This document shows positions 23,073 through 56,009 of a DNA stretch of 64,000 nucleotides, one piece after another. The stretch covers positions 1,472,001 to 1,536,000 of the forward strand of contig CAVVLO010000002.1 in the NCBI GenBank assembly GCA_963749155.1, written 5' to 3'. The notes under the pieces were generated by a model. The model was not told where the DNA came from and searched no databases. It was given only the letters and a program-made list of their open reading frames with translations. This stretch comes from an uncultured Armatimonadia bacterium (GTDB lineage: Bacteria > Armatimonadota > Zipacnadia > CAVVLO01). Made by a program: the position numbers and the translations under genes. Every line of letters starts with the position of its first letter. The first letter of the stretch is position 1.

Positions 23073-23136
23073 GAAAGCTTGAGTCGCGCCTCATCGCCCC
23101 CTATACTGGGAGGTGACACTCTCAGGGAGCCAGCCA

Positions 23137-40822: not shown

Positions 40823-42804
40823 ATGCGTGGTTCGAACCTGCTGCTTGTGGTGATGTTGATGATGGTAACGATTACAGGGCTTGGCTGTGCGGCCCAGGTT
40901 ACTCTGACTGGCACTGTAACCTCTGCCGCGACGGGAGAACCGCTGCACAAGGTCGAAGTCTGCGCGCTGCAGCTCGAAGGCGCAAGCGGCTTGCTGCTTC
41001 AGCCTTCCGCTACGGCTCGCACGGACAGCCAGGGGCATTTCACACTCAAGCTTGACGTTGCAGAACCTGCCCCAGGCAGTGTGGCGGTCTGGACGCGCAG
41101 CCTGCTCTACGCTAATGAGCTGTCCACTGGTACCAGGCTGGCCGCGAATATCGGCCCCACCCTTAACGAGGCCAGGCAAGCCGCGATCGACCTCGCCAAT
41201 CCTCCGAGCGAACTGACCTTTGCATTGGAGACTCGCTTCGGAGAAGAACATATCGTGATGCTGCCGATGGCTGACGGCACGAAGCTGGCCACCGATTACA
41301 TAACTCCGAAGGGAGAAGGCCCCTTCCCCAGCATCTTGCAGCGCACTCCGTACGGGCGCAGCCTCGAGGATGGTCTCTCGACCGGCCTGCTGGAGCAGGG
41401 CTATGCCATCATCTGCCAGGATCATCGCGGCCGGTTCGACAGCGAGGGCATCGGCCTGGCTTTCAAGGCCTGCGGTTGGGGCGAACACCAGGATGGCTAC
41501 GATACGGTGGAATGGATTGCCGCACAGCCCTGGTCCAATGGCAAAGTCGGCACTTTCGGCGCCTCGGCGGGTGGGATTACGCAAAACCTGATGGCAGGCG
41601 CGGCGCCGCCCCATCTCACCTGTCAGGTAGTCCTCGTCGCTTCGGCCAATTTCTATGAGGATACGGCTTATCCGGGCGGCGCTTTCCGCAAGCAGATGGT
41701 CGAAGGCTGGCTCGCGGGCAACAATTTCCCCCCGAGACGCTGCAGGAGATGCTGGATCATCCTAACGAAGACGAGTATTGGGACGCCTACAACGTCGAGA
41801 AGCGCGCCCCCGAGATCACCGTGCCAAGCCTGCAACTTGGAGGCTGGTTCGATTGCTTCGAAAGCGGGCCAATCCGCAGCTTCCTCAGCCGACAGACGAA
41901 GGGTGGAGAAGGCGCCAGGGGCAACCAGCTCCTCATAATGGGTCCCTGGACTCACGGGGGGATGTTCGCCGCCAAGCAGGGCGAGTTGGAGTTCCCAGCT
42001 GCCGCCGTGGCCAGAGTCGACCTGATGCAACGCCTCAAGGACTTCTTCGCCTTCTGGCTGAAGGGCGAGCAGAACGACGTTATGGAAGCCTCCGTAACCT
42101 ATTACCAGATGGGCGCTTGTGGCGAGCCGGGCGCGCCCGGCCACGTGTGGCAGACCTCGCCCACCTGGCCTCCTCCCGCGCGCAGTCAGCGGTTCTTCCT
42201 CACGCCCGCGGGCGGATTAAGCAAAGAAGCGCCGACGGCGGAGGAGGCGCAGCTTTCGTATGTCTGTGACCCTGGCAACCCGGTGCCCAACCACGGGGGC
42301 CACAACCTGATACTGCCGGCAGGCTCTTTCGACCAGCGCGAGATCGAAGCGAGGGACGATGTCCTCTCCTTCACCACCGAGCCGCTGACCGAGCCGCTCA
42401 ACCTGACCGGGCAAGCGATCGCGAGGCTGTACGTGGCCTCGACCGCGGTGGATACTGACTTCGTGGTCAAGCTGTGCGATGTCTATCCCGACGGGCGTTC
42501 TATGCTCATCAGCGAGGGCGTGCTGCGGGCGCGCTACCGGGGCAGTTTCCAGTCGCCAGAGCTGCTGACTCCAGGGCAGGTCTATGAGCTGGAAGTGCCA
42601 CTCTGGGACACGAGCCTCGTCTTCAACACGGGGCACCGGATCAGGCTGGACGTGCAGAGCAGCGACTATCCGCGCTACGACGCCAACACTCAGACGGGCC
42701 TCCCCTATGGTCAGCCTGCGGAGCCGGTCGTCGCGACCAATACGGTCTTCTTCAACGCCGAACAGGCCTCGTGTCTGGACCTACCGGTGATGCTGGAGGA
42801 GTAA
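40823..42804 (+). CDS. secreted CocE/NonD family hydrolase with N-terminal beta-sandwich; frameshift near 41735
   Basis: MADGTKLATD, RTPY, QDHRGRFDSEG, QPWSNGKVGTFGASAGG, GGWFD, GPWTH, GHRIRLDVQSSDYPR. Confidence 0.88.
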
Positions 42805-42838
42805 GGACGCCTCAACGCCTCACATACAGGTGAGTGCA

Positions 42839-43820
42839 GTGAGCGAAAAAGACCAAGAGACCTCCTCGCCGCCGCTGGAGCGACCTCTCGCCCTGGGTGA
42901 GAGTGCCGGTTGGGTATGGGGCGGGGCTAGGGACGATCGCGCTGCTCTTCCTGCTGGCGGTGGCGATCGCCCGAACGCTGCCGATCCAACAAGGTCCAGT
43001 GCCAGGTGCATATCCGACGATGCGCGACACATACCTGGCCCAGTTGGCTCAGTTCATCGCGGTGCTGGGCCTGACGATCGGGTGCTTCAGCGGCGCCACC
43101 ATCGTGATGGCGCTTACGCACGAGCGCCGGTCGTTGCCCACGTTGCTGTTCGGAGCGCTCTTCCTGACGGTGGGCTTCGCGTACGCGGTCACCAGGCCCC
43201 AGCAACCCTATGGGCACCCCCTCGGCGTGCTGTGGACGGTGGAGCTGACCGCCCTGACGGCTTGGGTGCTGTTCGGCGTGGGCTCGAAGGTCTGGGCCGA
43301 ACGCCAAGAGGCCCGGCTACAGGCTCCTCCACGTTGGCGCTGGTTGCCGGGCTGGATGCGCATGGTCCTCGGCTACTTGGTCGGCTTGGCGCTGATAATA
43401 CCCGCGATCTACCTTGATGCCCTTCTGGCGTTGGGGCCAGGTCACGCCCTGTCAACCGCAGGATTCGGGCTGGTGAAGGCGGACCAGCCTGCTGGGTACC
43501 TGCTGGTCGGGTTAGGCCTAATTCTGCCACGGCTGCTGGTGGCGCCCCTCCTGGCCGCGATCGTCGCGCTGATCGCCGGTGGGCGGGGCGCGCTGCACGG
43601 CTTGCTGTTCGGGCTGATCCCCGCGAGCAATGCATACCCGGGCCTGGTCGGTTACGGCGTAGTTCGCTCCATCGGATCGGCCAAACTGCTGGGGCTCATC
43701 CTGGCCGCCCAGCCGCTAGTTCTGCTGCTCGCCTGCTGGGCCGGCGGCGCGCTGGCGGCGTGGCTTTTTACGAAGCGGAAGGCCAAGGCCGTTCCTGTTG
43801 AAGGTGACACTGATGACTGA
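42839..43820 (+). CDS. hypothetical multi-pass membrane protein (tandem paralogue 1); extra base near 42860
   Basis: Extensive DNA and protein identity with the next gene; about 8 TM. Confidence 0.7.
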
Positions 43821-44754
43821 AACGCAACAAGAGCCTCCTCGCCGCCGTTGGAGCGACCTCTCGCCCTGGGTGAGGGTGCCGGTGGGGTATGGGGCGGCGC
43901 TAGGGACGATCGCGCTACTCTTCCTGCTGGCCGTGGCGATCGCCCGGGCGTTGCAGAGCAATAAGGGTGCAATGCCAGGGGCCTACCTGACGTCTCACGA
44001 CGTCTGGCAAGTGGCCCAGTTCGTGCTGGCGCTCGGACTAGCGGCAGGCTGCTTCGCCGGCGCCGCCGTGGTGCTGAGCCTCGCGGGGGGGCGCTGGTGG
44101 GTGCCCACGCTGGTGTTTGGGGCGGTATTCCTGATAGTGGGCTTTGTGTACGCAGTCACCAGGCCCTCTGAGGTCTACGTGGCCACACAGGTCGGAGGCT
44201 CCACGCGGCTCGCTTGGGACCCCCTCGCCGTGTTATGGGCGGTGGAACTGACCGCTCTGTCCGCCTGGCTGCTGTTCGGCGTGGCCGCGAAGACCTGGGC
44301 GGGGCGAGGCGCCGCGCGGCCACAGACTCCTCCGCGTTGGCGCTGGCTACCCGGCTGGGCACGGGTGGCGTTGGGCTACCTGGTGGGACTGGCGCTGATA
44401 ACACCCGCGATCGGCCCGGTGGCGCTGCTGGTTGCGGGGCTCGGGGACGCGCTGGTTGAGGTAGGTGCGATTCTGCCCAACCTGCTGGTGGCGTCTCTCC
44501 TGGCCGCGATCGTCGCCTGGGTCGCAGGTACAAACGGCGCGGTGCACGGACTGCTCTTCGGCCTGCTCCCGGCGAGCGCCGTGGGGCGGGGGCTGGCAGG
44601 CTACGAGGTAGGCTTCCCCCTGGGGTGGTCGGTCAGCGCCCTGGGACTGATCTTTGCCGCGGAACCGCTGCTCGTGCTGCTGGCCTGCTGGGCCGGCGGC
44701 GCGCTGGCGGCGTGGCTGGCAGGGCGTAAGCAGCTAAAGCCTGCTTCAGGCTAG
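43813..44754 (+). CDS. hypothetical multi-pass membrane protein (tandem paralogue 2)
   Basis: Intact hydrophobic ORF translationally coupled to paralogue 1. Confidence 0.75.
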   Translation: MTETQQEPPRRRWSDLSPWVRVPVGYGAALGTIALLFLLAVAIARALQSNKGAMPGAYLTSHDVWQVAQFVLALGLAAGCFAGAAVVLSLAGGRWWVPTLVFGAVFLIVGFVYAVTRPSEVYVATQVGGSTRLAWDPLAVLWAVELTALSAWLLFGVAAKTWAGRGAARPQTPPRWRWLPGWARVALGYLVGLALITPAIGPVALLVAGLGDALVEVGAILPNLLVASLLAAIVAWVAGTNGAVHGLLFGLLPASAVGRGLAGYEVGFPLGWSVSALGLIFAAEPLLVLLACWAGGALAAWLAGRKQLKPASG

Positions 44755-44822
44755 TAGTGGCCCTTCGAGGTGGCTTAATATACTGTTGCTCATTATTAAT
44801 AATATTTAACCTTGCAAAGCTA

Positions 44823-44896
44823 GTGACAAAGCTGGGGCGGGGGGGATAGACTGTTAAGTGAAGCAAAGTTCTGGCAGTGTTGGAGGTCGCACGATG
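44823..44896 (+). promoter_or_regulatory. cassette 1 promoter/leader with G7 tract in the spacer
   Basis: GTGACA-18-TAGACT then gttaagtgaagcaaagtt...ttggaggtcgcacgATG, homologous to 49309-49382. Confidence 0.6.
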
Positions 44897-45522
44897 ACCC
44901 AAGCCCAGAGTCTTTGGAAAGAACGCCTCCCCCTGTGGCGATTCAGCCTGCTGCTCGCTCTGCTTATTGTTTCTCTCATCGTATTCGCGCGCGTCTCCAA
45001 GGCCACTCCAGTGAACCCCCTGTTCAAGCTTAAGCAATTCGTGCTGGAGCAGCAGCAGCAGCACCAGCAGAAGCTGGACCTCGAGCGCGACCCCCTTCCT
45101 GGCCAGCCAAGGCCCGAAGGCCTGACCCAGTGGCTCGCGCAGCAGGGGCTCGCGGGCAAGCCGCTGGCGCTGCTGATGACAGGCTCCTGCAGCGAGTGCG
45201 CCACAAGCTATCTCAAGGCCTGGAGCGACTTCGCAGCGCTGCCCGGGCGCCGGCTGTGGTGGTCTTCGCGGCCAGTGAAGAAGCCCAGGTCGAGGTTTTC
45301 CTCGCAAAACACCCTGAGATCAACCTGAAGCTGAAGGCGGCGCCATATCCGGGGCTGGAGAAGGAGCTCAACGCCCTCTTCCGGCCCCGCGCCTACTACT
45401 ACGGGGCAGATGGCGCGCTGGGGTGGCTTCAGGGCGACCACACCGACCCCTGGGCGACGCTGGCAGAACTGAAGGAACGGCTCGGACTGGCCGGGGAGGG
45501 CAAGACTAATGCGCAGAATTAG
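44894..45522 (+). CDS. membrane-anchored thioredoxin-fold (TlpA/redoxin-like) CxxC protein, cassette 1; frameshift near 45250
   Basis: N-terminal TM, GKPLALLMTGSCSEC, cis-Pro-like FRPRAYYY..DG; the paralogue at 49380 is intact. Confidence 0.7.
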
Positions 45523-46215
45523 AGGTTTCACCCTTATCGAATTGTTAATCGTGATGGCCATCCTGACCCTGCTGGCGGGCATCCTGTTCACCGTCTTCGC
45601 CGGCGCGAAGGAGAAAGCCCGTCAGACCCACTGTATGAATAACCTCAAGCAGCTCGGGGCCGCGATACTGCTATATAGGCAGGATTATGATGGGGGCTGG
45701 CCGGACGATGCGAAGGCCGTCTACCCGGCCATGTTTCAAGCAAAGAGGTCTTCGCGTGCCCCGACGATGGGGCAACTCGCAGTTTGCGACAGACAGCGGA
45801 GACTATTGGGGGGGTGTATTCGTCCTACGGCAGGTGTGGGGGAGACTTTCTGGGAATACTCTCGGGACGAAGCTTGCGAGTCGCTGCCACACCAGCTCTA
45901 GACTGTGTTGCTCGCGCCTGTTTCCTCGCAGAGAGGCATTTTGCTGACAGGTACCCGTTACTGCGCTGCTACAACCACCTCTTCCCGGGGAGTGATTGCG
46001 GCTCGAGGGAATTCGACAGGTTACGTGAAGCAACCGAACCGAGTGGGATTGTGCCCACTCTCCTACAAGATGGCAGTGTAAAGTTTGAGATAGCACCCTC
46101 ACCCTACGGATCCAATCCCCTGGCGGGACACGTGGCAGCCCACATTACATCAAAAGAGTGGCTCGATGTACTGGACTATTACAAGCAGCAGCTTGGGTGT
46201 GAAGAGGAGGATTGA
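45509..46215 (+). CDS. type IV pilin-like (class III signal) protein 1; frameshift near 45730
   Basis: RIRG|FTLIELL, AKEKARQTHCMNNLKQ, CPDD, CYNHLFPG, LQDGSV, KQQLGCEEED. Confidence 0.8.
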
Positions 46216-47114
46216 GATGGCAAAGCGAGGTTTCACCCTTATTGAGCTGCTGATAGTGATGGCCATCTTGACCCTGCTGGCGGGCATACTGTTCACTGTC
46301 TTCGCCGGCGCGAAGGAGAAAGCCCGCCAGACCCACTGTATGAACAACCTCAAGCAGCTTGGGGCAGCCATCCTGCTGTATAAGCAGGATTACGACGGGG
46401 GGTGGCCGGAGATCGCATGGCAGACCTATCCTCAGTATGTTAGCGACAAAGCGCTCTTTGTCTGCCCAGATGACGGCACAGCATCCAGCATCCGGAAGTC
46501 CTTCGAAACTCGGTATGGCGCCTATGAATCGTATGCAAGAGGTGGCGGTGATTTCCTCTACATACTCTCCGGAAGGGGTCTCCGGTCAGCGGCCATCCCA
46601 GGAACGAGCTGCTCATCACAGGCCATATTCTTGGCCGAGTGGCATTTTCGTGACAGATACCCGGTGCTCAGGTGTTTGAGTCATCTCTTCCCGGGTAGTG
46701 ACTGTGACTCGCGTGCGTTCGACAAGCTGATGGACGCAGCGGAAGTACGGGGCGTGATACCGACGCTTGCGCAGGATGGGAGCGTTGCATTGGAAGTCGT
46801 GCCGTCTGGCTATGGGCCGAACCCGCTGGCAGGGCATGCAGCCGCGCACCTGATGACCAAGGAATGGGCGGATGTGCTGAGAAGCTACAAGAAGCAGCTT
46901 GGGTGTGAAGAGGAGGATTGAGATGGCAAAGCGAGGTTTCACCCTTATCGAGTTGCTGATTGTGATGGCCATCTTGACCCTGCTGGCGGGCATCTCTGTT
47001 CACTGTCTTCGCTGGCGCGAAGGAGAAAGCCCGCCAGACCCACTGTATGAATAACCTGAAACAGCTCGGCGCGGCGATATTGCTATATAAGCAGGACTAC
47101 GATGGGGGGTGGCC
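46181..47114 (+). repeat. about 230-bp near-identical direct repeat (46181-46407 and 46887-47114) spanning pilin gene junctions
   Basis: Both copies contain gcagcttgggtgtgaagaggaggattgagatggcaaagcgaggtttcacccttat...; differences are mostly synonymous. Confidence 0.9.
46217..46921 (+). CDS. type IV pilin-like protein 2
   Basis: MAKRG|FTLIELL, intact ORF, same motifs as protein 1. Confidence 0.88.
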   Translation: MAKRGFTLIELLIVMAILTLLAGILFTVFAGAKEKARQTHCMNNLKQLGAAILLYKQDYDGGWPEIAWQTYPQYVSDKALFVCPDDGTASSIRKSFETRYGAYESYARGGGDFLYILSGRGLRSAAIPGTSCSSQAIFLAEWHFRDRYPVLRCLSHLFPGSDCDSRAFDKLMDAAEVRGVIPTLAQDGSVALEVVPSGYGPNPLAGHAAAHLMTKEWADVLRSYKKQLGCEEED

Positions 47115-47631
47115 TAAGGATCTGGCCCGGATATACCCGCATTATGTGAACAGCTCTGCAGTGTTCGTATGCCCTGACGCGGTTGCGACTGCTGAGGAGC
47201 GAGAAGCTGCCCACCGCAGGAAGGGACTCTTCGTGTCGTATGAGCGCCTTGGGGGCTCCGCCTTGGGTGCGCTGTCCGGCGAGCAACTTGACCGGGTTCT
47301 TCGAACTCCTCAGTCGAGCTGTCTGGACAAGGTCGTCGCCTATGTGACGAACGATGTCGCCAGCAGGCTCCCGGTCCTGTGGTGCGTGGATCACCTGCTC
47401 CCTGGCGAGAACTGCATGCGCACAGGCTTCAGGGAGCGCGTGCTCGAGAACAACATGCGGGGGGTGATGCCGACACTTGAGCAGGATGGGAGCGTGATAG
47501 TAGTGGCAGTGCCGACGCGGTACGATCCCAACCCCTTCGCGTTCAACGCGATGGCTAGAATGACAGGGCACGAGTGGCAGCGCTTAGTCGACTCGTGGAA
47601 AAAGCAGCTTGGTTGTGAGGACGAGCAGTAA
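46923..47631 (+). CDS. type IV pilin-like protein 3; extra base near 46995
   Basis: Same N-terminus as protein 2; CVDHLLPG, EQDGSV, KKQLGCEDEQ. Confidence 0.82.
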
Positions 47632-47655
47632 GCTTGCGAATTGGAGGTGAGACAA

Positions 47656-47994
47656 GTGAGAAGACTGTCTGTTGCAATAATGCTGTGGTTAGTCCTTCTG
47701 GCGCTGGTGTTGGGCGTGCTCGCGCAGCTTGTGCTTGCGGACGACTGCAGCGGCGAGCATCAGTACTGCGGATCCTGGTACGACACGTGCTGCGCGAGGG
47801 GCTGCACGGACGTGACACTGGGAGCATGGCAGTGGGACTATTGTTACGAGCTATACATCCAGGTCGGCCCGATGTGGTATCCAGGCGCCTGCACCAGGTA
47901 CAAGAAAACCGCGGAATACTACAACTGCCCGGACGGTGAGCCGCCCTGCACTCTCACAAAGTGGGAGTTCGAGATCTGGGGAGAGTGCGACTGA
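47656..47994 (+). CDS. small secreted Cys/Trp/Tyr-rich protein (10 Cys in an 84-aa mature part)
   Basis: GGAGGTG RBS, GTG start, Sec signal ending VLA|DDC. Confidence 0.78.
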   Translation: MRRLSVAIMLWLVLLALVLGVLAQLVLADDCSGEHQYCGSWYDTCCARGCTDVTLGAWQWDYCYELYIQVGPMWYPGACTRYKKTAEYYNCPDGEPPCTLTKWEFEIWGECD

Positions 47995-48008
47995 GCCTCA
48001 AAACAAGA

Positions 48009-48035
48009 GCAGGGGCAAGTTGCCCCTGCACCCCC
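48009..48035. repeat. REP-like palindrome / possible bidirectional terminator
   Basis: gcaggggcaa-g-ttgcccctgc-acccc; similar element at 57160-57181. Confidence 0.5.
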
Positions 48036-48062
48036 GGAAGGTCGAACTGACTCAGCTTGGTA

Positions 48063-49124
48063 CTAAGTCTCCCCGAACTGTTTGAGGCCCGCGTAGCGCT
48101 TCTTGATATGTCCAAGGCGCTCGCGGATGGGCAGGTTGTAGGGGCATTTCTCCTCGCACTGGCCGCAGTCGGAGCAGTCCTCGGCTTTCTTCTCCAGCGC
48201 CCCGTATTCGCTCAGGAAGTAGGGCCACTCGTAGCCGTAGGCCCGGATGCGGTCGTAGAGCTGCATAATCGCGGCCACGTCCAGCCCCTCGGGGCAGTCA
48301 CGGCAATAGCCGCAGTTGCGGCAGATGGTCTCGCCCATCCAGGTGGCGCGGTCGAGGGCTTCTTTCAGCTCTTCCTCGGTGAGCTTGCGGAAGGTGTTGG
48401 AGGCCTCGAGGGCCTGATCGATGTCACGTTTGCAGTTGGCGCCCGCGAGCGCCACGTTGATATTCTTGTTGGCCAGCACAAACCACCAGGCATGCAGAGG
48501 ACTGACCGCGTGGTCCGCATCGCGGAAGAACATCCCGCCTGAGAGCGGCTTCATCGCGATGAAGGCCATATCGCGCTTGCGCGCCTCGGGGATAACTTCC
48601 AGCTCCGCGTCGTGGATGGCGAGGTTGTAGGTCGCCAGCACCGAGGAGAACTCTTCCAGCCGGATGCACTTGAGGAGGGTGGCGTTATCGTGGCCCGTCA
48701 CGCCCAGGTGCCGCACGACGCCCTGGTCCTTCATCCGCCTGAAAGCCGCCATCGCGCCGTTTGCGGCGGTGACCATCGAGAAGCGCTCGGGCGTCGAGAT
48801 ATCATGAAGCTGCCAGACGTCTAGATAATCGGTATTGAGGGCCGTAAGGCTCTCCTGCAGCTCGCGCATCGCCCCGTCATAGTCGCGGGCCATCGTTTTA
48901 GTGGCCAGCACGACTCGGCCCCTGCGACCTTCGATGGCAGCGCCGATCTTGGCCTCGCTGTCCCCGTAGGCGCGCGCGGTGTCGAGATACTCGATTCCCT
49001 TGTCCAGGGCGTAACTGACCACCTCGACGGCCTCATCGAAGCCCATCTGGATGATCGGGATGCCCCCGAAGCCAATCTCCGCCAGGTATTTGCCGGTCGG
49101 TTCGTGAACACGTTGCTTGAGCAA
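48063..49124 (-). CDS. aldo/keto reductase with C-terminal 4Fe-4S dicluster
   Basis: GFGGIPI, DTARAYGDSE, LATK, D..QLH, AMKPLSGG, CRNCGYC.DCP, CSDCGQCEEKCP. Confidence 0.93.
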   Translation of the reverse strand: MLKQRVHEPTGKYLAEIGFGGIPIIQMGFDEAVEVVSYALDKGIEYLDTARAYGDSEAKIGAAIEGRRGRVVLATKTMARDYDGAMRELQESLTALNTDYLDVWQLHDISTPERFSMVTAANGAMAAFRRMKDQGVVRHLGVTGHDNATLLKCIRLEEFSSVLATYNLAIHDAELEVIPEARKRDMAFIAMKPLSGGMFFRDADHAVSPLHAWWFVLANKNINVALAGANCKRDIDQALEASNTFRKLTEEELKEALDRATWMGETICRNCGYCRDCPEGLDVAAIMQLYDRIRAYGYEWPYFLSEYGALEKKAEDCSDCGQCEEKCPYNLPIRERLGHIKKRYAGLKQFGET

Positions 49125-49308
49125 GGTCGCTCCCCCCCAGAGGCTGCGCGAATCTTCCAGGTCACATCTTCTGCCTGGGAAGAGGGCTTCCTGCTAGTGA
49201 AATAGAGGACCTTGTCGGCAGTGGGAAGGGGCTTTCGATGGCCAGGTATTGGTTCGAGTGTTAATATGGATTTAGCGGGTATTGATGCCACTCAACCTCC
49301 TTAAGGGC

Positions 49309-49382
49309 TTGACAAAGTTGGGAGGGGGGGGGCTATATTGTTAAGTGAAGCAAAGTTTCTCAGCTTTGGAGGTCGCACGATG
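49309..49382 (+). promoter_or_regulatory. cassette 2 promoter/leader with G9 tract in the spacer
   Basis: TTGACA-19-TATATT, then the same leader as cassette 1. Confidence 0.62.
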
Positions 49383-50093
49383 ACCAGGTTCCAGGGCCTT
49401 TGGAAGCCAAGCATCCCCGTCTGGCGATTCAGCCTGCTGCTCGTGCTGTTCCTGCTCTCCTTCATCATTTTTACGAACGTTTCGCAAGCTAACCCCACCA
49501 ACCCCGTCGCGAAGCTCAAGCTGCTGCTGGGCGACAGGTACGAGCAAAACCGGATAGAAGCCCGACTCGCGGAGGATCCCAAGACCGGCCAAAAAGCGCC
49601 GCTGCAGCTCACCAAGTGGCTGGAAAAGCAGGGACTGGCGGGTAAGCCCGTGGCTGTGCTGATGATCGGCGCTTGCAGCGAGTGCGCCGCAAGTTACCTC
49701 AAGGCCTGGAGCGACTTCGCCGCGAAGCCGGGCGCGCCGGCGGTGGTAGTGTTCACACTTGGGGAGGAAGCCCAGGTGAAGGCCTTCCGCGCCAGGCATC
49801 CGGAAGTGAAGCTGACGCTGGCCCCCGAGCCTGAGGGCTATGTCCCTGACCCCAGTGCTGCGTTTGCTGCGCGCTTGGGGGCCAAGCCTTTCACCTGGAA
49901 ACCGCGCATCCAGCCCTATCAGGGAATCGGCAAGGACCTAAACGCGGTGTTCAGGCCACGCCTCTATTATTATGAGACAGACCGGGCGCTCGAGTGGCTT
50001 CAGCCGCGACAGGAAGCCCCCCAAGTGACGCTTGAGGGCTTCGAGCAGCACCTTGGGCTGGGTAAGGAGGGAGCGGCAGATGCGCAAGATTAG
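49380..50093 (+). CDS. membrane-anchored thioredoxin-fold CxxC protein, cassette 2
   Basis: TM anchor, GKPVAVLMIGACSECAASYLKAWSDF, FRPRLYYY. Confidence 0.75.
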   Translation: MTRFQGLWKPSIPVWRFSLLLVLFLLSFIIFTNVSQANPTNPVAKLKLLLGDRYEQNRIEARLAEDPKTGQKAPLQLTKWLEKQGLAGKPVAVLMIGACSECAASYLKAWSDFAAKPGAPAVVVFTLGEEAQVKAFRARHPEVKLTLAPEPEGYVPDPSAAFAARLGAKPFTWKPRIQPYQGIGKDLNAVFRPRLYYYETDRALEWLQPRQEAPQVTLEGFEQHLGLGKEGAADAQD

Positions 50094-50799
50094 AGGATTC
50101 ACCTTGGTTGAGTTGCTTATCGTGATAGGCATCCTCGCGTTGCTGGCGGGCATCCTGTTCAGCGTCTTTGGCGGGGCCAAGGAGAAAGCCCGTCAGGCCC
50201 AGTGCCTCAGCAACCTCAAGCAGATCGGTATGGCGGCGTTGCTCTACAAGCAGGATTTCGACGGCGAGTTCCCCCTCCGGATGGAGGCGCTCTTCCCCTC
50301 CTATGTCTCGTCCGCGGCGGTCTTCGTCTGCCCTGACGATGCCTCGTCGGGGGAGTGGCGCGAGAAGCTGGCCAAGGTACGCGGGGTTTACACCTCCTAT
50401 ACCCAGTTCGTGGACCCGCTGTATCAGATGAGCGGCCAAATCAGGCTGCGGCCAGAGGCGACCTGCAGCGAGCTCGCCTTCCAGTCGGCCCTCCGCAAGC
50501 TGTGGCCGAAGCTGCCGATCGCCACCTGCTGGGGCCACCTGCTGCCTGGGCGCTATTACGACGCCTATGGACCCGGGATGTTCGAGTTCCAGCAGGCTCT
50601 GCTGTTAAACGACACACCGTCGGTAATGCCCAGAGTTGAGCAGGATGGCAGTTGCAGGTTTATGAAGGTGCCGCAGGAGTGCGCCTATATTGATGTCATC
50701 ACCCCGTACGGCATCGCAGGGGTCACCTTTCACGACTTTAGGGTGCTGGTGCGGGAAGAGACTGCGGCGTTATGTGACGGCGAAAGCGATGGCGGTTAA
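50080..50799 (+). CDS. type IV pilin-like protein 4
   Basis: MRKIRG|FTLVELL, CLSNLKQIG, VCPDD, CWGHLLPG, EQDGSC. Confidence 0.88.
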   Translation: MRKIRGFTLVELLIVIGILALLAGILFSVFGGAKEKARQAQCLSNLKQIGMAALLYKQDFDGEFPLRMEALFPSYVSSAAVFVCPDDASSGEWREKLAKVRGVYTSYTQFVDPLYQMSGQIRLRPEATCSELAFQSALRKLWPKLPIATCWGHLLPGRYYDAYGPGMFEFQQALLLNDTPSVMPRVEQDGSCRFMKVPQECAYIDVITPYGIAGVTFHDFRVLVREETAALCDGESDGG

Positions 50800-51550
50800 A
50801 GGCGGACGGACCGGCCTGGCCCTGGTCGAGTGGCTGTTAGTGGTTGCCCTTCTCGTGCTGCTGGTCGGCACAGTCTACAGCCTGGCTGGTGGCGCCAGGG
50901 AGAAGCGCGCGCCAGTCGCAGTGCCTCGGCAACCTGGGGCAGATCGGCGCCGCGGCGCTGCTCTACAAAGCGGACTGGGATGGCCATCTGCCAGCTCAAC
51001 TGGAGGCACTCTTTCCGCAGTATGTCGCCTCGGAGTCAGTGTTCGTCTGCCCCAGCGATGTCGCGCCAGAGGGCTGGCGAACCGAGCTCCGGGAAGTGCG
51101 AGGCGTCTACACTTCCTATACCCAGTTTTCAGATGAGCGTTTCTGTCTAGGGGAGGGTGTGCGCATCTCACCAAGCATGCCCTATCAGCAGCTTGCCCAG
51201 GATTATGCTGTACAAGAGATCATGCCCAGGCTACCCATCGCCACCTGTTGGAGCCACCTGCTGCCGGGGCGCTATTACAACCCCTACGACCTAAAGCTGC
51301 AGACCTTCCAGAGAACACTATGGCGCTGCCGAACCCCTTCGGTTATGCCACGAGTGGATCAGGACGGGAGTTGCCGGTCTGATGAGGGTCCCCGAGGAAT
51401 GCCAGTATACCGCTGTCGTTGCGCTCTATGGCTGGGCGGAGATGGACCACCTGGCGTTTGACGCCTTGGTGAGGGAGAAGGTCAAGAACAGGGTCAAGTC
51501 TGGCGCGCGGACCGAGTCGGACCACAAGGGAGGTGATAACTTAAATGAGA
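50789..51550 (+). CDS. type IV pilin-like protein 5 (minor-pilin-like G|LALVE); frameshifts near 50905 and 51378; 3' end uncertain
   Basis: RTG|LALVEWL, ARQSQCLGNLGQIG, VCPSD, CWSHLLPG, DQDGSC. Confidence 0.65.
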
Positions 51551-51847
51551 CTAGTGAACAGGAAGAGATACCTGTCGCTGTGCCTTGCGCTGGCAGTTGT
51601 CGCGGTTGTGGCATTGGGGCTACTAGGCGTCGCAGCCATAGTTTGGGCGGACGTTTGTCCACCGTTCGAGAGCGACTGTGCGGAGCGAGACTGCACGGTG
51701 CTACTCAACCCGCCGCCACTACTCTGGGAAACGTTCTGTGAGGATCAGGTTAGGTCTCTCTGCACTCGCCTTCGCTCGACGTGTATACACAGCCTTGGGA
51801 GATATGTATGCGAAGTAAGGCCGACTTGGCCCTGGTCGAGTGGCTAG
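51545..51847 (+). CDS. small secreted Cys-rich protein, cassette 2
   Basis: GGAGGTGA RBS, signal peptide ending VWA|DVC, 7 Cys in the mature part. Confidence 0.7.
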   Translation: MRLVNRKRYLSLCLALAVVAVVALGLLGVAAIVWADVCPPFESDCAERDCTVLLNPPPLLWETFCEDQVRSLCTRLRSTCIHSLGRYVCEVRPTWPWSSG

Positions 51848-52544
51848 TTGTCATTGCCATCCTCGTGCTACTGGCCGGCACGGTCTACAGCCTGGCCGGG
51901 GGCGCGAGGGAGAAGCGCGCGCCAGTCGCAGTGCCTCGGCAACCTGGGGCAGATCGGCGCTGCGGCGCTGCTCTACAAGGCGGACTGGGACGGCCATCTG
52001 CCGGTCCAACTGGAGGCGCTCTTTCCCCAGTATGTCGCCTCGGAGTCGGTCTTCCTCTGCCCCAGCGATGCCGCGCCAGAGGGCTGGCGAACCGAGCTCC
52101 AGGGACGTGCGAGGCGTCTACACTTCCTATACCCAGTTTTCAGATGAGCGTTTCTGTCTAGGGGAGGGTGTGGTGGTCCCACCGAGCTATCCGTATGAGC
52201 AGCTTGCTCTGGATTATGCCGTACAAGAGATCTCTCCGAGACTCCCGATCGCGACCTGTTGGTGCCACCTGCTGCCGGGGCGCTACTACAACCCGTATGA
52301 CCTGAAGCTCAGAGCTTTCCAGAGGGCGCTTTGCGTTGCGATACCTCCTCGGTGATGCCGCGAGTGGATCAGGACGGCAGTTGCCGGCTGATGCGGATCA
52401 GCGAGGAGCGCGAGTTCACTGCTGTCGTTGCGCTCTATGGCTGGGCGGGGATGGACTTGGTCGAGTTTAACGCGCTGAGTGCGAGAGAAGGCCAAGATCA
52501 CGGTCAAGCTTGACCGGAAGAACGATAAAGGCAAGACGCCGTAA
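51808..52544 (+). CDS. type IV pilin-like protein 6, a recent duplicate of protein 5; several frameshifts (possible pseudogene)
   Basis: Near-identical DNA to about 50818-51485, offset 1010 bp; AD|LALVE lacks the -1 Gly. Confidence 0.6.
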
Positions 52545-52634
52545 GGACTTGCGGCCCGCTGGCCTTTGCCCGGGAAGAGGGCTTCCTGCCCGAGTGGCTT
52601 GCGCTTCTCGTGATTGCAGCTTAGACTGCCTGTT

Positions 52635-53450
52635 ATGGAAGCAGCCCAGGAGCAACCTCGCGCGCAGACTACTGGCAGCCAGTGGGCGATACTGGCGACA
52701 GTTGGATACGGAGTTTACAGCCTGCTGGCGGGTCAGCTCGCGCCGGCGCCGGTCGTCGGCGGATTGCTCTACAATCCCGCAGCCTCGATTGTCACCCTGA
52801 TGCTGGTGCTGATTGGCTTCTCCTTCTGGCGGACGTCGTGGGGACTTGAGATCGGCCTCACCCTGGCGGCGACTGCGCTGGTGGTGCTTGCGTCGGTTAA
52901 AGGAGCGCCTCCAGCCGGCGATGCGGCACTGGTGGTAGCCGCGGCCAGTTTCGGCAAGCTGCTCGCGCGGCTCTTCCGCGAACCCAACATCATACTGCCG
53001 GCCGTGATGGTTGCGGCGACAGTTGACCTCCTCAGCGTCTACTTCGGCCCGACCGGGCATATCGTGAGGCATATGCCCGGCCTGCTTGCGGCAGGCACGA
53101 CGATGGCAGGGCAGGCAGGGGCCACAATTGGCTCCGGGGCGGGGAAGATCGTCCTCTCGCCGGTCAATGTTGGCGCGGGCGACCTCGTGTTTATGGGGAT
53201 GTTCCTGGGGGTTGCGATACGCCTGTCACTCGACGTCCCAGCGACGGTGCTGGCCTTGTTCCTGGCCGCCTCGACAGGTATAATCCTGGCGGCGGTGCAG
53301 CCAATCCCGATACCTGGACTGGTGCTCATCGGCAGCGCGGCGCTCATCGCCAATCGCAGTTTTATCAAGCTCTCTGGAGAAGAGAAGCGTTCCGTGATGG
53401 TGCTTGGGATTGTGCTCGCACTCCTTCTAGCCTGGGCCCTGCTGCGCTAA
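52635..53450 (+). CDS. multi-pass membrane protein with presenilin/SPP-like GxGD aspartic protease motifs
   Basis: TM-embedded VDLLSVY, VGAGDLVF and IPGL (PAL-like) in the canonical order. Confidence 0.6.
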   Translation: MEAAQEQPRAQTTGSQWAILATVGYGVYSLLAGQLAPAPVVGGLLYNPAASIVTLMLVLIGFSFWRTSWGLEIGLTLAATALVVLASVKGAPPAGDAALVVAAASFGKLLARLFREPNIILPAVMVAATVDLLSVYFGPTGHIVRHMPGLLAAGTTMAGQAGATIGSGAGKIVLSPVNVGAGDLVFMGMFLGVAIRLSLDVPATVLALFLAASTGIILAAVQPIPIPGLVLIGSAALIANRSFIKLSGEEKRSVMVLGIVLALLLAWALLR

Positions 53451-53518
53451 AGGCGCCAGGGCTCCGCCTCAGGCTGAATCAGTTTTTCCCGGTGGGTTTT
53501 TCGTTGGAGGGATAGCTC

Positions 53519-56009
53519 GTGGATGACCGGTATGAGCCGCAAATTATAGAACCCAAATGGCAGCAGCGCTGGCAAGAGTGGGGCCTGTTCCGCGTGGGCG
53601 AGGAAGTGCCCGTCGAGAGCAAGTTCTACTACCTGGATATGTTCCCCTATCCCAGCGGCAAGATGCATATGGGCCATGTGCGCAACTACATCATCGGCGA
53701 TGTGGTCGCGCGTTATCATCGGATGAAGGGCCAAAATGTGCTGCATCCGATGGGCTGGGATGCCTTCGGATTGCCCGCGGAGAACGCGGCTATCAAGCAC
53801 AATACTCATCCCTCGGACTGGACGCGCCAGTGCATCACCGAGATGCGCGCGCAGTTCAACCGGCTGGGCATCAGCTTCGACTGGGAGCGCGAGGTAACGA
53901 CCTGCGAGCCGGACTACTACAAGTGGACGGAGTGGATGTTCGTCCAGTTTTTCAAGGCTGGCCTGGCTTACAAGAAAGAAGCGCCGGTCAACTGGTGTCC
54001 CGACTGCCAGACCGTGCTCGCCAACGAGCAGGTCGTGGGCGGGGCTTGCGAGCGGTGCGATGCCGTCGTCGAGAAGAAGAACCTTTCGCAGTGGTTCTTC
54101 AAGATAACCGATTACGCCGACAGGCTGCTGGCCGACCTGGCCAAACTTGCCGACTGGCCCGAGCGCGTGAAAGTGATGCAAGAGGCCTGGATTGGGCGCA
54201 GCACGGGCGTCGAGATCCTTTTCCGCCTCGCCGAGACAGGCGAGGAGCTGCCTGTCTTCACCACCCGGGTGGATACCATCTTCGGCGCCACCTATGTGGT
54301 GCTGGCAGTAGAACATCCCTGGGCTGACCGACTGGTTACGGCGGACCGCAAGTCAGAGGCGGAAGCCTTTACCAACGACGTGAAAGCCCAGACCGACTTC
54401 GAGCGCGTCGCAAGCGACAAGGACAAGCGCGGCTTCTTCACCGGCAGCTATGCCATCAATCCGGTGAACGGCGAAGAGATACCGATCTACCTGGCCGATT
54501 ATGTGTTGATGGAATATGGCACCGGCGCAATTATGGCGGTGCCCACCCACGATGAGCGAGACTTCGTCTTTGCGCGCAAGTATGGGCTGCCGCTGCGAGT
54601 GGTCATCCAGCCTGAGTGCGAAGTGCTGGATCCCTCCTCGATGGAAGGCGCTTACACCGGCGAGGGGCTGCAGATCAACTCCGGTCAGTTCGATGGGCTC
54701 TCCAACGAACAGGGCAAGGTCCAAATCGCCGACTGGATGGAAGCCGAAGGCATCGGGCGACGCAAAGTAAACTATCGCCTGCGCGACTGGTGTATCTCTC
54801 GCCAGCGCTATTGGGGCGCGCCAATCCCCATTATCTACTGTGACAAATGTGGCACTGTGCCAGTGCCGGAGGAGCAGCTTCCTGTTGTGCTGCCGCGCGA
54901 TGTGGCCTTCACCGGGGAAGGAGGCTCGCCTCTTGCGAAAGTGGAGAGCTTCGTAAACACCACCTGCCCGACCTGTGGCGGCCCGGCGAAGCGCGAGACC
55001 GACACGATGGACACCTTCGTGTGCAGCTCGTGGTACTTCCTGCGTTATGCCGACCCCAAAAACACCGAAGCGGCTTTCGATCGCGCCAAAGTGGATTACT
55101 GGCTGCCCGTAGACCAGTACGTCGGCGGCATCGAGCATGCGACGATGCACCTGCTTGTATGCGCGTTTCTTCACGAAGGTGCTGCACGATTTGGGGTATC
55201 TCGGTTTCGATGAGCCTTTCACCCGGCTGTATACCCAGGGGATGATCTACAAGGACGGCGCCAAGATGTCCAAGTCGAAGGGCAACGTGGTGACGCCCGA
55301 GGTCATCCAGGACAGATATGGCGCTGATACGGGCCGGATGTATATCCTGTTCGTGGGGCCGGCCGACCAGGACGCCGAGTGGAACGACAAGGGCGTAGAA
55401 GGCATCGCCCGGTTCCTCAGGCGGCTGTGGCGCACCTATAGTCTGCATGTGGGCAAGTTCGACAAAGACTGGTCAGGCAAACTGGCAGGGGCTGAAGTCT
55501 CCGAAGGCGCGCTGGCGGTCAGGCGCAAGCTGCATCAGACGCTGGCCAAAGTGAACGATGACATCCAGAGCTTCCACTTCAACACCTCGGTGGCGGCGCA
55601 GATGGAATTGTTGAATGTGCTTCAGCCCTGGGCCGATGGACTCACCGAGCCGACTGAAGTTGACCTGGCGGTGCTTTCCGAGGCGCTTGAGCAGTTCGCA
55701 CGGTTGCTGTCGGTGTTCGTGCCGCACCTGGCGGACGAGTTGTGGGAGACTCTTGGCTTCGAAGGCAGCCTGCTCGAGCAGGCCTTCCCGATGGCTGATC
55801 CGGCCCTTCTGGTACTGGACACGGTCGAGGTGCCAGTTCAGATAAATGGCAAGGTGCGCGGCGTGGTAACCGTGCCTGCTGGCGCCAGCGCCGAGGAGAT
55901 GCAGGCCATCGCTCTGGCGGACGAGAAACTGAAGGACCGGTTCGAAGGCGTGACCATCGTCAAGGCCTTCGCGAAGCCCGGCCAGATGGTGAGTTTCGTT
56001 GTGAAGTAA
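53519..56009 (+). CDS. leuS: leucine--tRNA ligase; apparent frameshift near 55157
   Basis: [58 protein letters not shown]. Confidence 0.97.

Follow-up and report, generated by a model that had tools for sequence, protein, structure and literature searches.

Type IV pilins and pseudopilins are known to depend on disulfide chemistry and to work with small secreted partners in a few described systems. The stability or display of the pseudopilin ComGC depends on an oxidoreductase, BdbDC in Bacillus subtilis and DsbA in Staphylococcus aureus (PMC7212644; PMC13712780). In the CofB-CofJ pair of ETEC and the TcpB-TcpF pair of Vibrio cholerae, a type IVb minor pilin binds a secreted protein, and CofJ and TcpF are described as small, Sec-exported, encoded among the pilin genes and released by the pilus machine (PMC6048534, PMC9565799, PMC10120004). 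In the TMcin bacteriocin clusters of Gram-positive bacteria, the secreted product is disulfide-bonded and inserts into the membrane, and the cluster supplies both a CxxC oxidoreductase of its own, TmcD, and a membrane escort for that product (PMC13712780).

The window, that is, the whole 64,000-nt stretch of DNA analysed here, contains two cassettes (44823-47994 and 49309-52544), each with a promoter of its own, a redoxin that carries a membrane anchor and a CSEC motif (R), three pilin-like genes (P) and one small Cys-rich secreted ORF (C), as listed in Table 1. The original prediction of one module present twice, with an unrelated aldo/keto reductase in between, was borne out, as was the overlap of the membrane-anchored CSEC gene with the first of three pilin-like genes, the R stop lying 14 nt past the ATG of the first P gene in both cassettes. 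The shared layout holds for gene content and not for gene order, which is R-P-P-P-C in cassette 1 and R-P-P-C-P in cassette 2. Because the two copies are only about 71% identical at the DNA level, the duplication is not an artefact of misassembly. Alignment also confirmed a homologous region upstream of both copies, with -35 and -10 elements on either side of a G-tract spacer, then a conserved 5' leader and GGAGG ahead of the ATG (at 44894 in cassette 1); the cassette 1 site aligns with those of cassette 2 and the copies on contig C1, with spacers of 18, 16 and 19 nt by alignment count (18 nt in cassette 1 and 19 nt in cassette 2). The coordinates of the cassette 2 site were derived from the repeat match between copies. 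Its 19-nt spacer falls outside the 16-18 nt allowed in the promoter scan, which therefore did not list it. A third, larger locus on C1 contains two redoxins, seven pilin-like genes and three cys1-like genes or remnants, with parts that are 95.5% identical to cassette 1; it terminates in a cys remnant, followed by the same 3' end as behind cys1 and by a hairpin (L001).

Table 1. Coordinates of the features of the two cassettes and the gene between them, numbered from the first letter of the window
Feature	Coordinates	Strand	Description
Promoter-like site, cassette 1	44823..44852	+	GTGACA / 18-nt spacer with G7 tract / TAGACT; 9/12 consensus matches
redox1 (R)	44894..45522	+	Membrane-anchored CSEC redoxin; 1-nt deletion at 45246
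pil1 (P)	45509..46215	+	Start overlaps redox1 end by 14 nt; frameshift near 45730 (frame 2 to 1)
pil2 (P)	46217..46921	+	Intact; 6 Cys in mature part
pil3 (P)	46923..47631	+	1-nt insertion near 46995
cys1 (C)	47641..47994	+	Signal peptide and 84-aa mature part with 10 Cys
Terminator-like hairpin	48009..48029		G+C-rich palindrome between cys1 and convergent reductase gene
Aldo/keto reductase	48063..49124	-	With 4Fe-4S dicluster domain (Pfam); spacer gene outside module
Promoter-like site, cassette 2	49309..49339	+	TTGACA / 19-nt spacer with G9 tract / TATATT
redox2 (R)	49380..50093	+	Intact CSEC redoxin; 28-aa insertion relative to other copies
pil4 (P)	50080..50799	+	Intact; start overlaps redox2 end by 14 nt
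pil5 (P)	50792..51741	+	Three frames (two frameshifts); leader G|LALVEW; 3' end uncertain
cys2	51545..51847	+	Signal-like N-terminus, then 7 Cys; doubtful or damaged C member
pil6 (P)	51808..52513	+	Tandem copy of pil5; three frameshifts; Asp at -1

P belongs to the type IV pilins or pseudopilins and has only the first 30 residues of DUF1559. It carries a canonical class III leader (Gly at -1, Glu at +5), and both Pfam N_methyl and TIGR02532 matches lie above the cut-off; for pil1 the N_methyl match has an E-value of 3.4e-9. Leaders of this kind had been claimed for all of the pilin-like genes, which is correct for the P proteins with N_methyl matches but not for pil5 and pil6, where the leader is degenerate and no Pfam N_methyl match was obtained. 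The AlphaFold2 model of pil2 (pLDDT 94.1) has a helix over residues 9-59, and in a VIA search of PDB representatives its best 19 matches were all pilins or pseudopilins, with modest Z scores to pilins that are all below 8 (5.8 for PilA4; 5.3 for EpsG, with an rmsd of 2.8 over 92 residues). A Foldseek search with the P model gave no match at E <= 0.001. All 28 P sequences compared share C42 and C84-P85. P shares its class III leader and the following signature, with its Cys, with the DUF1559 (PF07596)/prepilin-type H-X9-DG paralogous families of Planctomycetota, Verrucomicrobiota and Armatimonadota; the first 36-40% of pil2 is matched by thousands of DUF1559-type proteins, and this genome alone has 34 DUF1559 matches. 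P differs from these families in that only profile positions 3-31 of 268 match it (the extent of the match in pil1) and in having a lineage-specific globular part, for which there are about a dozen full-length clusters. The machinery that such proteins would use had been expected elsewhere, and genes for a prepilin peptidase, PilB/GspE, PilC/GspF and secretins were indeed found elsewhere in the genome (profile matches: Peptidase_A24, 1; T2SSE, 7; T2SSF, 6 in three frames; secretin, 6).

The window's own R proteins have no direct match to any Pfam, NCBIfam or PDB family, and the structure model of a window protein is poor (pLDDT 52). A profile of 50 remote R homologues (A3), when compared with solved structures, matched thioredoxin-like 2m72 (1.4e-8), StoA (1.3e-5), ResA (7e-4) and, within this range, YkuV; Pfam AhpC-TSA matches occur in 35 of the 50 homologues and Redoxin matches in 28. 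The thioredoxin fold predicted for the CxxC protein is thus reached transitively, through remote homologues and not through the window proteins themselves, and R is on these sequence grounds a probable TlpA/ResA/StoA-like protein. It resembles TlpA/ResA/StoA/CcmG-type oxidoreductases in its N-terminal membrane anchor and in a CxxC placed after the first strand; Pro165 is nearly invariant and Arg166 invariant, and in alignments with the solved 2m72 and StoA chains the conserved Pro falls on their cis-Pro loop. R departs from this type in that the window's copies fall below every family threshold (Pfam Redoxin, AhpC-TSA), in that its gene precedes a pilin-like gene, with no cytochrome maturation, copper or sporulation context, and in that the full CxxC is kept in only 58 of 66 R loci. 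The remaining eight proteins are without the first or both catalytic Cys, and since five of these still sit in R-P or R-P-C chains, redox chemistry is not always needed. Pro is absent from all CxxC motifs seen (CSEC, CTDC, CEGC, CASC and others).

A small Cys-rich protein with a Sec signal had been proposed for each copy, which is well founded for cys1 and doubtful for cys2. Relatives of cys1, whose start is placed at 47641 here and at 47656 in the gene call of the collection, form only four clusters among 5.8 billion proteins, and no Pfam or NCBIfam family matched it. The odd Cys count of cys2 (seven) is accompanied by no detectable similarity to cys1 and by near-zero depth over 51564-51827 (0 in runs X1-X3, 0.22 in X4). 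Among the C proteins collected, 50 of 53 have an even number of Cys after the hydrophobic segment, mostly 10-16. The term polymorphic, used in the original prediction, fits because the miniproteins split into 25 sequence clusters among 57; profile-profile comparison yielded no link between these clusters.

Conservation was assessed with a profile of remote metagenomic R homologues (A4), which detects the R family in 49 of 401 Armatimonadota genomes (this genome among them) and 25 of 208 genera. Across all 73 A4 matches in 48 other genomes of the phylum, which are related and hence do not provide independent loci, P comes directly behind R in the same orientation at 58, with a Cys-rich, signal-bearing ORF next in line at 46, so the components do co-occur in other genomes. 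The latter count reflects a C-detection rule that was loosened after inspection of misses, the stricter rule giving 28 chains with C after P. Some chains are of the type R-P-C-P-C, one is R-(P-C)x4, and a membrane-anchored fourth gene (D) is next in 38 loci. As controls, the first 31 loci (234,761 nt) contain 36 prepilin-leader motifs, of which 26 fall in the short stretch behind R; 53 of the 70 ORFs that pass the Cys-rich rule in 944,506 strand-bases lie in chains; and no pilin gene neighbours any of the 13 weak TlpA-like matches in the class to which the window belongs. When each of 29 P-C pairs was compared with the other loci, its closest P and its closest C there were partners of one another in 23 cases. 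The distribution is patchy, since none of the other 78 genomes in the window's class yielded the module. No description of it was found in print, and R-P-C is apparently an undescribed, co-inherited three-gene module that is widespread in one phylum.

BdbDC and DsbA of the ComGC systems also serve other substrates. They resemble R-P in pairing a pseudopilin with a thiol-disulfide oxidoreductase, but these enzymes are DsbA-like, their genes are not beside the pilin gene and there is no Cys-rich secreted partner. The CofB-CofJ and TcpB-TcpF systems share with the module a gene, among pilin genes, for a small protein that is Sec-exported there and predicted to be so here; P differs in its short leader and DUF1559-type N-terminus, the machinery lies outside the cluster, the candidate cargo is Cys-rich and hypervariable, a dedicated redoxin is present, and the module reaches up to four or more copies per genome. 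TMcin clusters likewise encode a CxxC oxidoreductase, but they have an S2P-type leader protease, a DsbA-like CPHC enzyme, a single disulfide and no pilin-type leader, and they occur in different phyla.

From the conserved gene order, the families assigned and the even numbers of Cys, we propose that each cassette is an operon encoding a self-contained module that is accessory to type IV filaments or type II secretion, a reading in which our confidence is about evenly balanced. The 14-nt R/P overlaps and the shared promoter and leader are operon features. R would be held by its anchor in the cytoplasmic membrane and expose the CxxC domain on the outer side, where it would form or shuffle the disulfides of the P and C proteins encoded behind it, its chemistry being perhaps oxidative, reductive or isomerising. 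P would be a short-leader pseudopilin-like protein with 3-8 Cys, presumably cleaved by the prepilin peptidase of the genome before entering a filament built by machinery encoded elsewhere. C would be a Sec-exported miniprotein with 5-8 disulfides, possibly a fast-evolving cognate partner or cargo that P binds and presents on the surface or pushes out. In this genome, an ancestral R-P-C unit may have been amplified to three loci with tandem P paralogues; the orders R-P-P-P-C and R-P-P-C-P count against strict P-C pairing here.

It is also conceivable, though rather unlikely, that R serves P alone, as a dedicated chaperone or thiol-disulfide enzyme comparable to BdbD or DsbA with ComGC, and that C is an unrelated periplasmic or surface protein in the operon only through its own disulfide need. 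R-P is the most conserved pair (58 against 46 of 73 loci with C), C42 and C84 of P are invariant, and pseudopilins dependent on a thiol-disulfide oxidoreductase provide a precedent (PMC7212644; PMC13712780). Such independence of C is at odds with the several loci where one R is followed by alternating P-C pairs and with the co-inheritance of P and C, and C, with its 5-8 disulfides, is the more demanding substrate. The hypervariability of C would instead suit a peptide rich in disulfides, either bacteriocin-like or a signal, that is matured by R and diversified by selection, with P (and elsewhere D) acting as a membrane escort or immunity factor and not as a filament subunit. This follows the logic of TMcin clusters, whose biosynthesis has a cluster-encoded dedicated oxidoreductase and membrane escort (PMC13712780), and the frequent membrane-anchored fourth gene agrees with it. 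We regard it as unlikely to a somewhat greater degree, as P retains its canonical leader and pilin-like fold and no conserved transporter or protease lies beside the module in the seven neighbourhoods scanned. A role in metal handling, in which a TlpA-like reductase would keep the thiols of Cys-rich periplasmic proteins reduced for binding copper or another metal, is very improbable. TlpA-type proteins reduce copper chaperones and CoxB, and the genome has a CcdA/DsbD_TM match and no DsbA, DsbB, VKOR or Thioredoxin_4 match; against this, the even Cys numbers in C point to paired disulfides, the C sequences cannot be aligned and have no conserved metal motif in common, and no metal transporter lies beside the module in the same seven neighbourhoods.

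The accessory-module reading must also be weighed against decay, in which the cassettes here would be pseudogene repeats left from an ancestral module and without present function, and which we consider improbable. Frameshifts affect five to six of the eight R and P genes (redox1, pil1, pil3, pil5 with two breaks and pil6 with three), leaving only redox2, pil2 and pil4 intact, and at least eight fall in about 6.4 kb compared with at least three in the remaining 56 kb or so of the window. The Asp at -1 in pil6, a break at the same place in pil5 and pil6, and the cys remnant at the end of the C1 locus also favour decay. The essential leuS, however, is likewise split, and so are the genes for an S15 peptidase and a DEAD helicase in the window. 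Contigs assembled from short reads of other samples (runs X1-X4) mend four break points exactly: C is inserted behind 45246 (X2 and X4), T is inserted behind 45730 (a near-identical X1 contig), one base is deleted at 51916 and C is inserted at 52330, with one correcting contig differing at two positions over 541 nt. Because leuS is also broken and at least four sites are corrected in this way, most breaks look like assembly errors; because these are only four of at least eight break sites, some copies may be true pseudogenes. The frameshifts in the cassette genes had been missed in the original prediction. At the tandem repeat of pil5 and pil6 (84-90% DNA identity, 1010-nt period), contigs of X1, X2 and X4 join across about 1030-1110 nt. 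The pil3 protein is 99% identical to an intact copy on C1 (L001 8572-9387), and intact versions of both broken redoxin types, of 209 aa and 196 aa, are present in other assemblies, the 209-aa form being represented by the redox1 relatives P0002 and P0003.

Translation of positions 42000-55000 in six frames, with the open reading frames scanned against Pfam and NCBIfam, delineated two cassettes that each encode a membrane-anchored CxxC redoxin (R), pilin-like proteins (P) and a small Cys-rich secreted protein (C). The original prediction had described one module occurring twice with an unrelated reductase in between, and both copies and the intervening aldo/keto reductase are present. It had also given each copy a homologous promoter and leader, followed by an anchored CSEC redoxin overlapping the first pilin-like gene; the upstream regions of the two cassettes do align, starting at the -35 element and continuing across a conserved leader to GGAGG and the ATG, and in both the redoxin stop codon lies 14 nt beyond the ATG of the first pilin gene. 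As the cassettes are only ~71% identical in DNA, the duplication is old and real, and misassembly, named in advance as a possible source of the duplication, is ruled out. The pil5/pil6 pair is a younger tandem copy with 84-90% identity and a period of 1010 nt.

Features of the two cassettes and the gene between them (window positions)
Feature	Position	Strand	Description
cassette 1	44823-47994	+	promoter-like site, redox1, pil1, pil2, pil3, cys1
redox1	44894-45522	+	redoxin ORF, N-terminal hydrophobic anchor, CSEC
pil1	45509-46215	+	pilin-like gene
pil2	46217-46921	+	pilin-like gene
pil3	46923-47631	+	pilin-like gene
cys1	47641-47994	+	small ORF, signal peptide and 10 Cys
aldo/keto reductase	48063-49124	-	with 4Fe-4S domain, between the two cassettes
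cassette 2	49309-52544	+	same promoter kind, redox2, pil4, pil5, cys2, pil6
redox2	49380-50093	+	redoxin of cassette 2
pil4	50080-50799	+	first pilin gene of cassette 2
cys2	51545-51847	+	second small Cys-containing ORF, between pil5 and pil6

Searching the genome by tblastn with the intact proteins revealed a third locus, on contig C1 (L001), which contains two redoxins, one with CTDC and one with CSEC, together with seven pilin-like genes and two cys1-like genes; of a third cys1-like gene only a 3' remnant is left. Over 940 nt and 880 nt of cassette 1 the identity to this locus is 95.5%, and the loci therefore swap sequence or were recently copied. Just upstream of its CTDC redoxin, L001 4648-5367 encodes a pilin-like paralogue in which an ordinary N-terminal membrane helix replaces the class III leader while the DUF1559-type signature and the head are retained. 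Within cassette 1, the last codons of pil1 and pil2 (46196-46219 and 46902-46925) encode Gly-Cys-Glu-Glu-Glu-Asp and spell GAGGAGGA, a ribosome-binding site a few bases 5' of the ATG of the next pilin gene; constraint on the DNA itself may act on this conserved acidic tail. Directly upstream of cassette 1 are two paralogous multi-pass membrane proteins in tandem (42897-43820 and 43798-44754), and a third membrane protein (52614-53450) lies directly downstream of cassette 2; none of the three matches a Pfam or NCBIfam family or is found beside the C1 locus.

To place these cassettes in a wider context, an R profile built from remote metagenomic homologues rather than from the window was searched against 401 genomes of the phylum. 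The family was found in 49 of the 401, including the present genome, and in 25 of 208 genera, with no more than four matches per genome; named relatives are Armatimonadota MAGs and Candidatus Fervidibacter canadensis. All 73 matches from the other 48 genomes were then annotated with profiles for R and P and, for C, with a rule that required a hydrophobic 14-mer without charged residues and, after it, 45-190 residues that include 8 or more Cys and are at least 6% Cys. The original expectation that the components would co-occur elsewhere was borne out in these 48 genomes, with P directly after R at 58 of the 73 loci and C after P at 46, counts that are not independent as the genomes are related. 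The chain R-P-C accounts for 42 loci, R-P for 12 and R alone for 13; R-P-C-P-C and R-C occur twice each, and R-P-C-P and an R followed by four P-C pairs once each. Five of the R-P loci have less than 950 nt beyond the pilin and two carry a Cys-rich ORF under an earlier rule, while two of the R-only loci are too short to show neighbors and four have another order, C-P-R or P-R. The C rule was loosened after inspection of misses, because ORFs plain by eye escaped the stricter versions; a stricter rule gives 28 chains with C after P. As controls, 26 of 36 leader motifs in the 234,761 nt of the first 31 loci lie directly behind R, 53 of 70 ORFs satisfying the final C rule on both strands (944,506 strand-bases) fall within chains, and a pilin neighbor is absent from all 13 weak TlpA-like matches in the window's own class. 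The data support a conserved R-P-C operon, with gene order, family assignments and the parity of the Cys counts as what is directly observed.

A fourth gene (D) follows the module in 38 of the 73 loci and encodes a membrane-anchored protein of ~200-240 aa (e.g., L055 3066-3725 on the minus strand, L059 6566-7252 and L101 3096-3800). A profile search for D found no match in the present genome, and five D proteins matched no Pfam family at E ≤ 0.1. The wider neighborhoods vary: seven neighborhoods of 10 kb have nothing in common beyond the module, and neither they nor the two cassettes contain pilus machinery beside it. A gene for an ECF-like protein with sigma-70 region 4, which may be a dedicated regulator, lies immediately upstream of R in one genome (L051 4117-4782) and immediately after the module in another (L060 7727-8329).

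The redoxin had been predicted to have a thioredoxin fold, and this is supported for the wider family, while the window's own R gives no direct match. Searched alone, the latter matched no Pfam or NCBIfam family at E ≤ 0.01 and no relevant one at E ≤ 10; a close-relative profile found nothing relevant among the solved structures of the PDB, and the ESM Atlas returned weak leads (thioredoxin-like clusters at ranks 12-30, score 0.92). An AlphaFold2 model from nine sequences only reached a pLDDT of 52, with the first strand-helix-strand-helix half alone visible. A word-indexed search recovered only four clusters among 5.8 billion proteins, and a profile search without the word index recovered 149 representatives at E ≤ 0.001, all of ~200-220 aa and the same layout. 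A metagenome scan with P0130 yielded no relative. In an alignment of 50 remote homologues, C102 (the second Cys of the CxxC) and Arg166 are invariant, and C99 (the first Cys), Pro165 and several further positions are at least 90% conserved; at E ≤ 0.01, Pfam AhpC-TSA is found in 35 of them and Redoxin in 28. The profile of these 50 matches the solved thioredoxin-like structure 2m72 (1.4e-8), StoA (1.3e-5), YkuV, ResA and Mpt53, with the CxxC and the Pro loop in register with 2m72 and StoA. Because it is this wider profile, and not the window's own proteins, that matches solved thioredoxin-like folds, R is by transitive homology probably a very divergent, membrane-anchored protein of the TlpA/ResA/StoA kind.

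All four R copies of this genome have CSEC or CTDC. Among 66 R proteins the CxxC is retained in 58, six have the second Cys alone and two have neither; R-P or R-P-C chains nonetheless begin with five of these eight. The genome is complete by marker genes and has one CcdA/DsbD_TM match, with none for DSBA, DsbB, VKOR or Thioredoxin_4. As to enzymatic direction, R could be either an oxidase working without a DsbA system or an isomerase/reductase fed by CcdA.

Three class III-signal pilin-like genes had been predicted per copy. With the signal defined as a short basic leader ending in Gly, a hydrophobic residue at +1, Glu at +5 and ~20 hydrophobic residues, the prediction holds for pil1-pil4, which match Pfam N_methyl (3.4e-9 to 8.4e-8) and TIGR02532, both above cut-offs, but less well for the tandem copies, as pil5 (leader G|LALVE) has no Pfam match and in pil6, as assembled, position -1 is Asp. 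The same four proteins score 27-29.6 bits against PF07596 (DUF1559; cut-off 23.3) over profile positions 3-31 or 3-34, and the DUF1559 N-terminal signature (Ala-Arg, a conserved Cys and Asn-Leu-Lys-Gln) is present after the leader; of the 268 profile positions, none beyond position 35 is matched. The C-terminal H-X9-DG family TIGR04294 is not among the NCBIfam matches of the pilin-like proteins, and a Gln-Asp-Gly-Ser stretch near the P C-terminus bears a resemblance to H-X9-DG only. Over its first 36-40%, pil2 has matches to thousands of DUF1559 proteins, those named by organism all being from Armatimonadota, and about a dozen clusters match it over the full length.

An AlphaFold2 model of pil2 (28-sequence alignment; pLDDT 94.1, pTM 0.86) predicts a helix at residues 9-59 and a largely helical head with one hairpin. 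Foldseek found nothing for it in the PDB at E ≤ 0.001. Aligned exhaustively with 48,161 representative chains, it had type IV pilins or pseudopilins as all of its 19 top matches, at modest Z of 5.8 to 2.9 (PilA4, 5.8; EpsG, 5.3, rmsd 2.8 over 92 residues; PulG, 4.3). C42 in the helix and C84, with Pro directly after it, are invariant in 28 of 28 P sequences. The filament machinery is encoded elsewhere in the genome, as anticipated: prepilin peptidase, assembly ATPases, platform proteins and secretins are represented outside the window and above cut-offs (PF01478, one match; PF00437, seven; PF00482, six in three frames; PF00263, six). The genome has 34 DUF1559 matches in total, about ten of them within the three redoxin loci, and another of the 34 is a pilin-like gene in the window at 20121-20831 with no redoxin neighbor. 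Genomes of Planctomycetota, Verrucomicrobiota and Armatimonadota carry tens to hundreds of DUF1559-type pseudopilins each, and we know of no function for them; judged by titles, none of the papers found to name DUF1559 is a study of the family's function.

The miniproteins are diverse, with 25 sequence clusters among 57. Profile-profile comparison detected no link between the cys1 family and five of the clusters, nor among these clusters (all probabilities <16%), and a motif-level likeness of cys1 to the group of C proteins at loci L057 and L067 is unsupported by that comparison. Ten C proteins of other genomes matched no Pfam family at E ≤ 0.1, relatives of cys1 are confined to its own lineage, and cys1 had no usable match in the ESM Atlas. 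The number of Cys after the hydrophobic segment is even in 50 of 53 C proteins, mostly 10, 12, 14 or 16, as would be expected if all Cys were paired. These miniproteins constitute a pool of scaffolds of ~100 aa, with 5-8 predicted disulfides and no known family.

Gene calls from this assembly need care. Frame changes occur in redox1, pil1, pil3, pil5 (two breaks) and pil6 (three breaks), and comparison with the near-identical C1 copies located indels of one base at 45246 and ~46995; a separate break is present in the C1 redoxin itself. We read most of these breaks as assembly errors, because genes outside the cassettes are likewise split: leuS (53519-56009) across two frames, 53519-55213 and 55137-56009, and an S15 X-Pro dipeptidyl-peptidase (40823-42804) and a DEAD/HRQ1-type helicase (23113-24913) each into two overlapping frames. 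With indel errors breaking even leuS, the calls are fragmented. When contigs of four public sequencing runs were aligned to the window, at least four indel differences fell at break points: a C inserted behind 45246 (two runs), a T inserted behind 45730, one base deleted at 51916 (two runs) and a C inserted behind 52330. Apart from its 45730 insertion, the contig concerned shows just two differences over 541 nt, and intact versions of both broken redoxin types, of 209 and 196 aa, are present in other assemblies. Some decay is also possible, because break density in the cassettes is more than ten times that of the remaining window, pil5 and pil6 have one break in common, and the -1 residue of pil6 is Asp. 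Contigs of three runs bridge ~1030-1110 nt in the pil5/pil6 region, either as a single-copy form in other strains or as a collapsed repeat, and depth over 51564-51827 in the cys2 region is none in runs X1-X3 and 0.22 in run X4. That the cassettes of this genome are no more than remnants of an ancestral module is very unlikely.

The explanation we favor, at about an even chance, is that R would fold both P and the disulfide-rich C on the outer side of the membrane, and that P would be the cognate pseudopilin linking C to filament or secretion machinery whose genes lie at other loci; the direction of R's chemistry, like cleavage, binding and export, is what we infer. Of the P-C pairs, 29 have a credible relative of their C at another locus, and for 23 of these the pair of that relative also supplies the nearest P, so P and C appear to be kept together as pairs, which may simply be orthology of whole modules; at one four-pair locus the four pairs have different nearest pairs, which lie in different genomes. 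A folding-only arrangement, with no cargo relation between P and C, would suit R-P being the most conserved pair, and would suit less well the P-C pairs that alternate behind a single R and the joint inheritance of P and C; we regard it as unlikely. A bacteriocin-like weapon with a membrane escort, for which the diversity of C and the membrane-anchored D might speak and the pilin signal of P would not, is distinctly unlikely, and metal handling, against which the even Cys counts speak, is barely credible.

Known systems offer partial parallels to the favored coupling of C through P. The nearest analogues are BdbDC or DsbA with ComGC and, in the parts of the respective accounts available to us, the minor pilins with secreted partners CofB-CofJ and TcpB-TcpF as well as the TMcin clusters. 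Like CofB-CofJ and TcpB-TcpF, a secreted-protein gene adjoins a pilin gene here, cys1 following pil3 and C following P at 46 of 73 loci; unlike the type IVb minor pilins, with their long leader, large minor pilin and complete operon, the leader here is 5-7 residues and the proteins are ~235 aa. We found no description of the R-P-C gene set in literature on pilins and thioredoxins of Armatimonadota, on H-X9-DG, or on pseudopilins with a thiol-disulfide oxidoreductase. Here one branch of the DUF1559 type goes with two constant partners, a dedicated redoxin and a secreted protein rich in disulfides, and this yields a concrete, bench-testable hypothesis. Extending it, R-P-C modules could be phylum-wide cargo cassettes, each hypervariable miniprotein with its many disulfides having its own adaptor pseudopilin and sharing one dedicated redoxin, with which a single generic machine, a type IV filament or a T2SS, would be loaded with exchangeable effectors, adhesins or signals; we hold this tentatively and think it doubtful as a whole. 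If true, these would be the first cargo-specific pseudopilin adaptors, and one branch of the DUF1559-type pseudopilins, whose families are very large, would gain its first function. Substrate recognition by the T2SS and secreting pili is described as poorly understood in the PMC10120004 abstract, and if cargo and pseudopilin are encoded and inherited as pairs, the cassettes would be a natural experiment on it.

Finally, the spacers between the -35 and -10 elements of the three redoxin promoters (44829-44846, 49315-49333 and L001 ~6118-6133) hold G-tracts of 7, 9 and 6, with resulting spacer lengths of 18, 19 and 16 nt. The tract of cassette 1 is one base shorter in the contigs of two other runs. 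Slipped-strand phase variation at these tracts is possible, and might add a phase-variable choice among cassettes; homopolymer error in assembly is an equally good reading of the lengths. Runs of G or C of at least 9 are rare in this genome, with 17 seen against 106 expected from composition. Outside the window, runs of 13-18 adjoin a repeated sequence of ~40 nt at C2:250798, C2:304813 and C3:309791, and other long runs (12-18) lie in AT-rich, promoter-like contexts; these long runs may be mobile element ends or further contingency loci.
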